A DNA stretch of 64,000 bases from Escherichia phage vB_EcoM_PTE-Eco05. Below the pieces are notes generated by a model. It was not told the DNA's origin. It searched no databases and was given only the letters and a program-made list of their open reading frames with translations. A program made the translations under genes and the position numbers. Of the stretch, positions 22,725-24,994 are shown piece after piece (the stretch's first letter is position 1; each line of letters starts with the position of its first letter). The stretch lies in the sequence record PQ306573.1. One strand, given 5' to 3'.

Positions 22725-24994
22725 ATGAGTACAGTTTTTAATACACAACAAGTCGATGTTTTGAACGAACCGATGTTCTTTGGTTCTGGTCTTGGTCTTG
22801 CACGGTATGATATTCAGCGTCATAAAGTTTTTGAAGAACTTATAGAAAAATCCTTGTCATTTTTCTGGCGCCCCGAAGAGGTAAACTTAATGTTGGACTC
22901 TGCACAGTTCAATAAGCTTCCTCAGTTCCAACAGGACATCTTTACAAACAATCTTAAGTATCAATCATTATTGGATTCTATCCAAGGCAGGGCCCCATCT
23001 GCGGTACTTATGGCACTGCTTTCCGACCCTTCATTAGATACGTGGGTTGCAACATGGACATTCAGTGAAACTATTCACTCTCGTTCATATACTCATATTA
23101 TGCGAAATCTTTATACCGATCCATCCAAAGTATTTGATGAGATTGTATTAGACGAAGCAATCATGAAACGAGCTGAATCAATAGGTAAATATTACGATGA
23201 TGTTCTAGTCAAGACTCGTAATTGGGAAAATGCTAAAGAATTTGTAGAACTAGCTAAAGAATCTCCTGATGCCGACTTTCGTTTAAACCGAGCTATTAAA
23301 CAAGAAGCCGAAGCTAAACGTGCTTTAATGAAATCTCTTTACCTCTGTTTGCACGTTATTAATGCCTTAGAAGCTATTCGTTTTTATGTATCTTTTGCGT
23401 AAAATGCGCCTTTAAACGGTAACGTTTATCGAAAACTCCTTTAATTGCTGGAAAGTCCTTTATAGGAAAACTAGCAGCCAAGGTTTTGCTTGCACCTTTA
23501 ATTAGTATAATATAAATATGATTATACTTTTAAGAGGATGCACAATTGAACTATAGAAAAATTTGGATAGATGCTAACGGACCTATACCTAAAGATTCTG
23601 ATGGAAGAACATACGAAATCCATCATAAAGACGGTAACCGTGAAAATAATGATTTAGATAATTTGATGTGCCTTTCTATACAGGAACATTATGATATACA
23701 TTTAGCTCAAAAAGATTACCAGGCTTGTCATGCTATAAAGCTTAGAATGAAATATTCTCCTGAAGAAATTTCTGAATTAGCTTCTAAAGCCGCAAAATCT
23801 AGAGAAATCCAGATTTTTAATATCCCTGAAGTACGAGCTAAAAATATTGCCTCTATTAAATCTAAGATAGAAAATGGTACATTTCATCTTTTAGACGGTG
23901 AAATACAGCGTAAATCTAATTTAAATAGAGTTGCATTAGGTATACATAATTTTCAACAAGCTGAGCATATTGCAAAAGTTAAAGAACGCAATATTGCAGC
24001 TATAAAAGAAGGTACTCATGTATTTTGCGGTGGTAAAATGCAGTCAGAAACTCAATCAAAACGGGTAAATGACGGTTCACATCATTTCTTGTCAGAAGAC
24101 CATAAGAAAAGAACATCAGCAAAAACATTAGAAATGGTTAAGAACGGAACCCATCCTGCACAAAAAGAAATCACATGTGATTTCTGCGGTCACATTGGTA
24201 AAGGTCCTGGATTTTATCTAAAACATAATGACAGATGTAAATTAAATCCAAATAGAATTCAATTGAATTGTCCATATTGTGATAAGAAAGATTTATCACC
24301 ATCAACATATAAACGATGGCACGGCGACAATTGCAAAGCAAGGTTCAACGACTAGTCTTCGGACGTAGGGTCAAGCGACTCGAAATGGGGAGAATCCCTC
24401 TGGGATTGTGATATAGTCTGGTCTGCATAGTAATATGTAGCAGTTCATAAGAGAACGGGTTGAGAATTAGCGAGCTCAATCGAACATAACGGTACCTTTA
24501 ACTTCCATAAGAACATGGAAATTATGGAAGGTAATGCAAAGATTATGAAGTTCATTGCTCGTGACGAACAACTCCATCTCAAGGGTACTCAGTACATTAT
24601 CCGTCAACTTCAATCTGGTACTGATGGCGATGAGTGGGTTCAAATTGCTAAAGAATGTGAACAAGAAGCAGTTGACATTTTTATGGAAGTAAATCGTCAA
24701 GAGAAGGAATGGGCTGCACACCTCTTTAAAGACGGTACATGTCCAGGTATCAATACGCAGAGTATGTGTGCTTTTGTTGATTACTTGACTGTGTCTCGTA
24801 TGAAACAGTGTGGTTTGCCATGCCCAATCACTGATGCTCCGACCAAGCATCCGTATCCTTGGATTCGTGAATATCTTAACTCTGATTTAGTTCAAGCAGC
24901 TCCTCAGGAAGTTGAAATCAGTTCTTATCTTGTTGCACAAATTGATAATGATGTGGACCAAAATGTAATCAATTCATACAAAAAATATTTCTAA
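22725..24994 (+). CDS. nrdB: ribonucleotide reductase beta subunit, interrupted by a group I intron; CDS = join(22725..23400, 24492..24994)
   Basis: Exon 1 ...[11 protein letters not shown] plus T of a Cys codon; exon 2 resumes GT ACC TTT AAC... giving [17 protein letters not shown]...; joined product about 392 aa. Confidence 0.85.
23401..24491 (+). mobile_element. group I intron in nrdB (about 1091 nt) carrying I-TevIII
   Basis: Exon 1 ends with T (23400), intron ends with G (24491); frame is restored only by this join; boundaries inferred, not matched to a reference. Confidence 0.75.
23546..24355 (+). CDS. I-TevIII: HNH homing endonuclease I-TevIII (full-length, intron-encoded)
   Basis: 269 aa; HNH motif YEIHHKDGNRENNDLDNLMCLSIQEHYDIH and C-terminal Cys-rich zinc finger (CDFCGH...CPYC); length matches the intact RB3-type I-TevIII as recalled. 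Confidence 0.85.
   Translation: MNYRKIWIDANGPIPKDSDGRTYEIHHKDGNRENNDLDNLMCLSIQEHYDIHLAQKDYQACHAIKLRMKYSPEEISELASKAAKSREIQIFNIPEVRAKNIASIKSKIENGTFHLLDGEIQRKSNLNRVALGIHNFQQAEHIAKVKERNIAAIKEGTHVFCGGKMQSETQSKRVNDGSHHFLSEDHKKRTSAKTLEMVKNGTHPAQKEITCDFCGHIGKGPGFYLKHNDRCKLNPNRIQLNCPYCDKKDLSPSTYKRWHGDNCKARFND

Follow-up and report, generated by a model that had tools for sequence, protein, structure and literature searches.

A full-length RB3-type group I intron with an I-TevIII reading frame in nrdB of Escherichia phage vB_EcoM_PTE-Eco05

Introduction

The gene nrdB, whose product is the ribonucleotide reductase (RNR) small subunit, is interrupted in Escherichia phage vB_EcoM_PTE-Eco05 by an insert carrying a homing endonuclease open reading frame (ORF). 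The analysis covered a 64,000-nt stretch of this genome (sequence record PQ306573.1; hereafter the window), and all positions are coordinates of that stretch. The locus raises the question of whether the insert is an intron removed from the transcript or a free-standing gene that divides nrdB into separately translated parts and, if it is an intron, whether it has kept what is needed for its own mobility. The evidence below indicates that the element is almost certainly the group I intron of T-even phage nrdB in its complete, autonomously mobile form. An nrdB intron with the endonuclease I-TevIII is already known, experimentally characterized, annotated in close relatives and common, and the result carries little weight as a discovery. 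For annotators the check is of use: in many deposited relatives the locus is wrongly entered as two NrdB fragments and a hypothetical protein, and a default Rfam scan overlooks the ORF-bearing nrdB intron.

Boundaries of the insert and the spliced product

Two RNR small-subunit ORFs were found in 22725-24994, one at 22725-23402 and the other in the frame running from 24492 (Pfam PF00268, E = 7.9e-19 and 3.5e-13, respectively). By direct reading, the 3′ end of exon 1 is ...TTTTGCGT at 23400 and the 5′ end of exon 2 is GTACCTTT. The exons are separated by 1091 nt (23401-24491), and this insert begins with AAAATGCGCC and ends with ...AACATAACG at 24491. Joining of 23400 to 24492 produced an ORF of 1179 nt (392 codons) in which the junction codon T|GT specifies cysteine. 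E. coli NrdB (PDB 1piy_A and others, E = 1.6e-125) could be aligned to residues 3-388 of the spliced 392-residue NrdB, the junction falling in ungapped sequence, and in phages JK1 and BF15 the intronless nrdB genes run without interruption across this very point (...GCGT|GTACC...). An earlier reading made from the sequence alone had placed an insert of about 1091 nt, ending in G, between the T of a Cys codon at 23400 and the GT at 24492. Because of the ungapped alignment and the contiguous JK1 and BF15 alleles, these boundaries are exact, and the continuous NrdB that had been proposed from them is recovered. The features of the locus are collected in Table 1.

Table 1. Coordinates of the nrdB exons, the intron, its structural elements and the signals around its ORF.
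Feature	Position	Strand	Detail or basis
nrdB exon 1	22725-23400	+	Codons 1-225 and first base of Cys226; ORF list, Pfam Ribonuc_red_sm, colinearity with E. coli NrdB
nrdB group I intron, full-length RB3-type, 1091 nt	23401-24491	+	Comparison with RB3 and T4; RF00028 match on 3′ half
P1	23397-23409	+	Exon GCGU and A23401 with U23405-C23409; U23400.G23406 wobble at 5′ splice site; 5 pairs, invariant in all alleles
P2 hairpin, GUAA loop	23413-23428	+	3 of 6 pairs with compensatory double changes
P3, 5′ strand	23436-23441	+	Partner 24387-24392
P4 (23446-23451/23471-23476) around P5 (23456-23459/23464-23467)	23446-23476	+	P5 closing pair covaries (UA/AU/GC)
P6 and P6a, 5′ strands	23477-23489	+	Partners 24342-24344 and 24333-24339, across the ORF-containing loop
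Hairpin sequestering the I-TevIII ribosome binding site	23491-23542	+	23491-23499 pairs with 23533-23537 and 23539-23542
T4 late-promoter consensus TATAAATA	23511-23518	+	Within the ribosome binding site hairpin, downstream of its 5′ strand; role from PMC2988022
Shine-Dalgarno AAGAGGA	23532-23538	+	7 nt upstream of the TTG start
ACAATTG, 5′ copy of 7-nt direct repeat flanking the ORF	23542-23548	+	ORF-less alleles keep a single copy
I-TevIII gene, 269 residues, TTG start	23546-24355	+	HNH domain and two zinc fingers; stop within P7 5′ strand
ACAATTG, 3′ copy of 7-nt direct repeat	24327-24333	+	
Core, 3′ half	24350-24418	+	P7 24350-24354/24414-24418, P7.1 24355-24364, P7.2 24368-24381, P3′ 24387-24392, P8 24393-24407; Rfam alignment
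Peripheral hairpins P9 (24423-24440), P9.1 (24443-24456) and P9.2 (24460-24479)	24423-24479	+	Compensatory changes in one pair of P9 and two pairs of P9.2
Terminal intron G (omega-G), 3′ splice site	24491	+	Sequence; junction checked against intronless alleles
nrdB exon 2	24492-24994	+	ORF list, Pfam match, splice reconstruction, alignment with E. coli NrdB

The group I core

A default Rfam scan of the whole window at gathering thresholds gave no match; it misses both the nrdB intron and the intron of the nearby td gene because ORFs interrupt them. In a permissive scan by E-value, the group I intron model RF00028 matched 24200-24440 (34 bits, E = 1.2e-6). The alignment was sound only over the 3′ half (J6/7, P7, P3′, P8, P7′ and P9), the 5′ half being misplaced into the ORF. 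Natural alleles in which the intron is shortened scored 68.6 (PD112), 74.1 (DCP80) and 57.9 bits (SG1) against the same model, whose gathering score is 50. The PD112 intron is the window sequence minus 23542-24326, the only other difference being a gap of 2 nt in the loop of P6a. Since this near-identical ORF-less allele passes the RF00028 threshold, the core in the window is a bona fide group I core.

The helices of the core were mapped from P1 through P9.2, including the pseudoknot that P7 forms with P3. Extra P7.1 and P7.2 hairpins are typical of phage group I introns, and phage introns that bear them are presumably assigned to subgroup IA2. The proposed pairings were examined by aligning five diverged alleles (window, S16, T4, SG1 and DCP80). 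All 404 cells of the 81 proposed pairs were standard pairs (100% paired), and eight pairs had changed on both sides: three in P2, one each in P5, P7.2 (U-A to C-G) and P9, and two in P9.2. When the 3′ partners were slid by 1-3 columns in six controls, pairing was 33-45% and there were no double changes, and the observed covariation score was reached by none of 500 shuffles. The sample is small and its members closely related, so that the covariation is supporting rather than independent proof; it agrees in full with the Rfam alignment. The hallmark U.G pair of P1 at the 5′ splice site and the terminal G of group I introns are also in place. The identification as a group I intron, first proposed in the sequence-only reading, is borne out by the RF00028 match, the covarying P1-P9.2 core and these two hallmarks.

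Related sequences extend beyond the T4-like phages. By distant blastn, the P7-P9 core is 70-90% similar to introns in hundreds of unrelated phages of Gram-positive and Gram-negative hosts (Staphylococcus, Bacillus, Pectobacterium, Vibrio and others). The 3′-most 89 nt of the intron, in its P9 region, also match, at 86.5%, positions 1501-1587 in a split 'ATPase' gene of Pseudoalteromonas phage pYD6-A, an unrelated marine podovirus in which an HNH gene adjoins the split gene. The matching pYD6-A locus gave no gathering-level Rfam match.

The I-TevIII reading frame

The ORF within the intron matched PHROG 12324 (I-TevIII) over 269 of 269 positions (1.9e-193) and Pfam HNH_3 (E = 6e-13). The catalytic role of H26, H27, N39 and H48 has been defined by alanine mutants of the RB3 enzyme (PMC1865063), and all four residues are present in ...EIHHKDGNRENNDLDNLMCLSIQEH.... 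I-TevIII is described as having two CX2CX12-13HX3C zinc fingers, with cysteines 211/214 and 242/245 (PMC1865063). A regular-expression search located both of them here, at C211-C231 and C242-C263, with C211, C214, C242 and C245 present. The 269-residue frame and its HNH motif had thus been recognized correctly from the sequence, and the single C-terminal zinc finger first noted proved to be two; the frame opens with TTG and not ATG. A PDB sequence search with I-TevIII returned no solved relative at E ≤ 0.01. The last eight codons of the ORF and its TAG stop overlap P6a′, P6′ and P7, as they do in T4.

The predicted protein is identical to RB3 I-TevIII at 268 of 269 residues, the sole difference being Y23 in place of D23. 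Tyrosine at this position is shared by FL31, whose protein is identical, and by the 90%-identical copy of Salmonella phage S16, and a 51-nt stretch that includes the Y23 codon was matched exactly in at least 62 phage records. The figure of 62 is a lower bound for Y23 and not a census, and the 28-nt word of the megablast search misses RB3-type D23 copies. No match was obtained when IMG/VR was scanned for the exact pattern around this codon. Because FL31, S16 and these records carry the codon, Y23 is the common (majority) allele of I-TevIII. In a single pairwise comparison with the S16 gene, the ratio of non-synonymous to synonymous substitution rates (dN/dS) was 0.118, with dS at 0.56. This value suggests that the ORF is under purifying selection and that a functional protein has been selected.

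Residues 74-114 of I-TevIII (23765-23887), which lie in its linker, matched the Pfam FlgM (anti-sigma-28) family at 26.2 bits (cut-off 25, E = 9e-6). This match is probably a compositional or helical coincidence.

Regulatory signals and repeats around the ORF

The hairpin that would sequester the I-TevIII ribosome binding site had a minimum free energy of -16.5 kcal/mol (z = -3.2), and its 9 pairs are kept in all alleles. An arrangement of a late promoter with such a hairpin has been described for I-TevIII (PMC2988022). Late transcripts, which would begin past the 5′ arm of the hairpin because the promoter is located downstream of it, should have an unobstructed ribosome site. By analogy with the published system, I-TevIII would be expected to be translated only late in this genome as well.

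The 7-nt direct repeats on either side of the ORF mark the limits of a segment missing from natural alleles. PD112 and DCP80, and SP21535 as judged by its short matches, lack exactly the 785 nt between the two ACAATTG copies, and the ORF-less introns still have the late promoter, the hairpin and the Shine-Dalgarno sequence. Because a promoter and Shine-Dalgarno sequence that are now useless have been kept, the ORF-less alleles look like deletion derivatives, which suggests that they arose by microhomology-mediated deletion of the endonuclease gene, either recurrently or with spread across genera. The converse, that the ORF-less state is ancestral and the repeats are the scar of an insertion, was judged less likely, given that the signals retained serve only the ORF.

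Distribution and exon flanks

About 626 phage records match the spliced nrdB junction, and in 504 the match spans it unbroken or almost unbroken. The intron was present in 128 records, of which 84 have it at full length, about 40 in the T4-type deletion form and a few without the ORF. The full-length form, not the T4 deletion form, is therefore the commonest among sequenced intron-bearing T4-like phages. The likeness to RB3 drawn in the sequence-only reading stands; the full-length form is neither rare nor limited to RB3.

Between -34 and +30 of the insertion site the exons match those of T4 exactly, and T4 nrdB served as the substrate in the mapping of I-TevIII cleavage to -14/-16 (PMC1865063). 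The RB3 enzyme acts there as a dimer, and its double-strand cut, 14/16 bp upstream of the insertion site, leaves 2-nt 3′ overhangs (PMC1865063). The region from -30 to +16 is nearly invariant in intronless alleles also. Among the records listed, the exon flanks (23300-23400 and 24492-24591) of most intron-bearing phages share 98-100% identity with the window, and those of intronless alleles mostly 86-93%, with differences at the P1-forming exon positions -5 and -2; exceptions exist, such as AV120 (90%). This pattern of flank identity fits the co-conversion signature of homing.

Proposed mechanism

By analogy with the published work on RB3 and T4, splicing of the intron and cleavage, dimerization and homing by its product would be expected in this genome as follows. 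The nrdA-nrdB message would include the intron, which would fold into a group I ribozyme (P1-P9.2 with P7.1 and P7.2), with the I-TevIII gene housed in the P6a loop. Self-excision at U23400|A23401 and G24491|G24492 would yield an uninterrupted NrdB. In early transcripts, the ribosome binding site of I-TevIII would be locked in the hairpin; late transcripts starting from the internal promoter TATAAATA would lack its 5′ arm and be translatable. An HNH nuclease that binds DNA through two zinc-finger modules, the enzyme would attach to nrdB in a co-infecting phage that lacks the intron and cut both strands 14-16 bp upstream of the point of insertion. As the break is repaired off the intron-bearing genome, the intron and flanking exon would be copied into the recipient.

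Alternative readings of the locus

Three observations weigh against a complete and mobile group I intron. The 34 bits scored by the window copy are below the Rfam gathering score, although this shortfall is accounted for by the P6a loop, where 785 nt of ORF-containing insertion split the model alignment. Residue 23, three residues before the catalytic H26, is not the aspartate of the tested RB3 enzyme. Finally, the TTG start codon could limit expression of I-TevIII.

The latter two points bear on the possibility that the intron splices and its endonuclease is inactive or poorly expressed, mobility then depending on neighbouring endonucleases as in T4. Position 23 does depart from the only I-TevIII that has been tested biochemically, the gene does begin with TTG, and purified RB3 I-TevIII has itself been reported to be weakly active. 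However, the ORF is uninterrupted and retains every mutationally defined catalytic residue and zinc ligand, Y23 is the majority allele and is found even in the diverged S16 copy, the low dN/dS points the same way, and the RB3 annotation uses the identical TTG start. An inactive endonuclease is accordingly considered very unlikely.

Still less credence, next to none, is given to nrdB as a 'gene in pieces', in which a free-standing HNH gene would lie between two separately translated polypeptides and no RNA would be spliced: many relatives are annotated with two NrdB coding sequences and a homing endonuclease, translation of a C-terminal fragment could begin from the ATG at 24515, and nrdA, 1 kb upstream, truly is split by an HNH gene, but this reading was rejected on the complete, covarying ribozyme core that flanks the I-TevIII ORF and on the NrdB frame, which resumes in mid-codon exactly at the terminal G of the intron, while exon 1 meets a stop at the first intron codon without an added tail, and the RB3 and T4 copies, which are nearly identical, carry spliced-join annotation and figure in the literature as self-splicing group I introns (PMC1865063, PMC2988022). 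A complete, mobile nrdB intron is thus retained as the reading of the locus.

Neighbouring split nrdA, td intron and operon context

The gene upstream, nrdA, is divided into nrdA-a (19510-20934) and nrdA-b (21680-22669) by a gene for a 236-residue HNH endonuclease (20980-21690), which has its own Shine-Dalgarno sequence and extends into nrdA-b. The active-site residues equivalent to Cys439 and Cys462 lie on either side of the division. NrdA-a carries a basic tail of 28 residues (isoelectric point 10.0) and NrdA-b an acidic head of 26 residues (isoelectric point 4.05). Over its N-terminal 99 residues, the HNH protein shares 49% identity with RB3 MobE. An Rfam scan by E-value for a group I intron within nrdA found none at E ≤ 0.01. 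At least 80% of the nrdA region is covered by matches in 34 phage records, and the annotated relatives among those listed share the split. This architecture mirrors the nrdA/mobE arrangement of Aeromonas phage Aeh1, whose nrdA has been described as 'genes in pieces' (PMC3045599).

The spacer between nrdA and nrdB (22670-22724) is only 55 nt long and has no mobE, unlike that of T4 and RB3. The closest relative for the spacer region, FL31, also lacks mobE there. The only MobE-like gene at the nrdA/nrdB locus is the one inside nrdA.

Farther upstream, the thymidylate synthase gene td contains a group I intron of 1016 nt (17840-18855), set between exon 1 (last base 17839) and exon 2 (first base 18856). 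RF00028 matched it at 18577-18807 (36.2 bits, E = 9e-7), and its ORF, from an ATG at 17971 to 18708, encodes a GIY-YIG protein of 245 residues that resembles I-TevI. Downstream of nrdB the gene order of T4 and RB3 is kept, with denA (endonuclease II, 136 residues, GIY-YIG; 25021-25431) followed by rnlA (RNA ligase 1, 374 residues; 25487-26611). The window is about 96-97% identical to its best database match over 25 kb.

The split nrdA and the td intron with its I-TevI-like gene are more notable than the nrdB intron. It is conceivable, if improbable, that the td intron with I-TevI, the Aeh1-style MobE-like HNH gene in nrdA and the nrdB intron with intact I-TevIII, which crowd into 7 kb of the td-nrdA-nrdB operon, interact, for instance through overlapping co-conversion tracts or trans-homing. 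If they did, the position of the mobE-like gene (in the spacer or inside nrdA) would be linked non-randomly to the state of I-TevIII (intact, deleted or absent) across T4-like phages.

Comparison with known introns

A megablast search with 23300-24600 against about 50,700 phage records returned full-length matches of 98-99.8% in T4-like (Tequatrovirus) phages. Those in RB3, RB5, RB6, RB7, RB9 and RB10 are annotated as nrdB with 'I-TevIII homing endonuclease'. The RB3 nrdB intron with I-TevIII was reportedly first described by Eddy and Gold in 1991. In RB3 (KM606994) the host gene, the insertion site, the 1091-nt length and the position and 269-residue length of the ORF are all the same as in the window. 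The two introns differ at two bases, 23612 (T here, G in RB3; Tyr23 rather than Asp23) and 24148 (A here, G in RB3; silent). The surroundings differ as well, since RB3 has mobE between nrdA and nrdB, whereas this genome has none there and instead has an HNH gene inside nrdA. The sequence-only reading, which pointed to the intact I-TevIII of RB3 and took the form present here to be the complete one, was accurate on this.

The T4 nrdB intron, given in the same reading as only about 0.6 kb with a truncated ORF, is indeed 598 nt long. It corresponds to the window sequence minus 491 nt within the ORF, with two single-base deletions and a few substitutions, and the deletion shifts the I-TevIII frame after codon 22. 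T4 shares the intron core, the splice sites, the late promoter, the ribosome binding site hairpin and the C-terminal part of the ORF, with about 98% identity over the alignable part; its P9 has G-C pairs at sites that are A-U or G.U in the window. The T4 intron is short and immobile, and homing of the longer one of RB3 is driven by the active HNH endonuclease that it encodes (PMC1865063, Robbins et al. 2007). For its inheritance, the T4 intron relies on MobE (PMC2790892).

The ORF-less nrdB introns of PD112, SP21535 and DCP80 (about 304 nt) occupy the same insertion site, with a core that is identical (PD112) or about 92% identical (DCP80) to that of the window, and the SG1 intron is partly deleted. 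The T4 td intron with I-TevI, a type to which the td intron at 17840-18855 belongs, has the same ribozyme architecture, an ORF in a peripheral loop and the same logic of late promoter and ribosome binding site hairpin. It differs from the nrdB intron in its host gene, in the family of its endonuclease (GIY-YIG) and in the location of its ORF.

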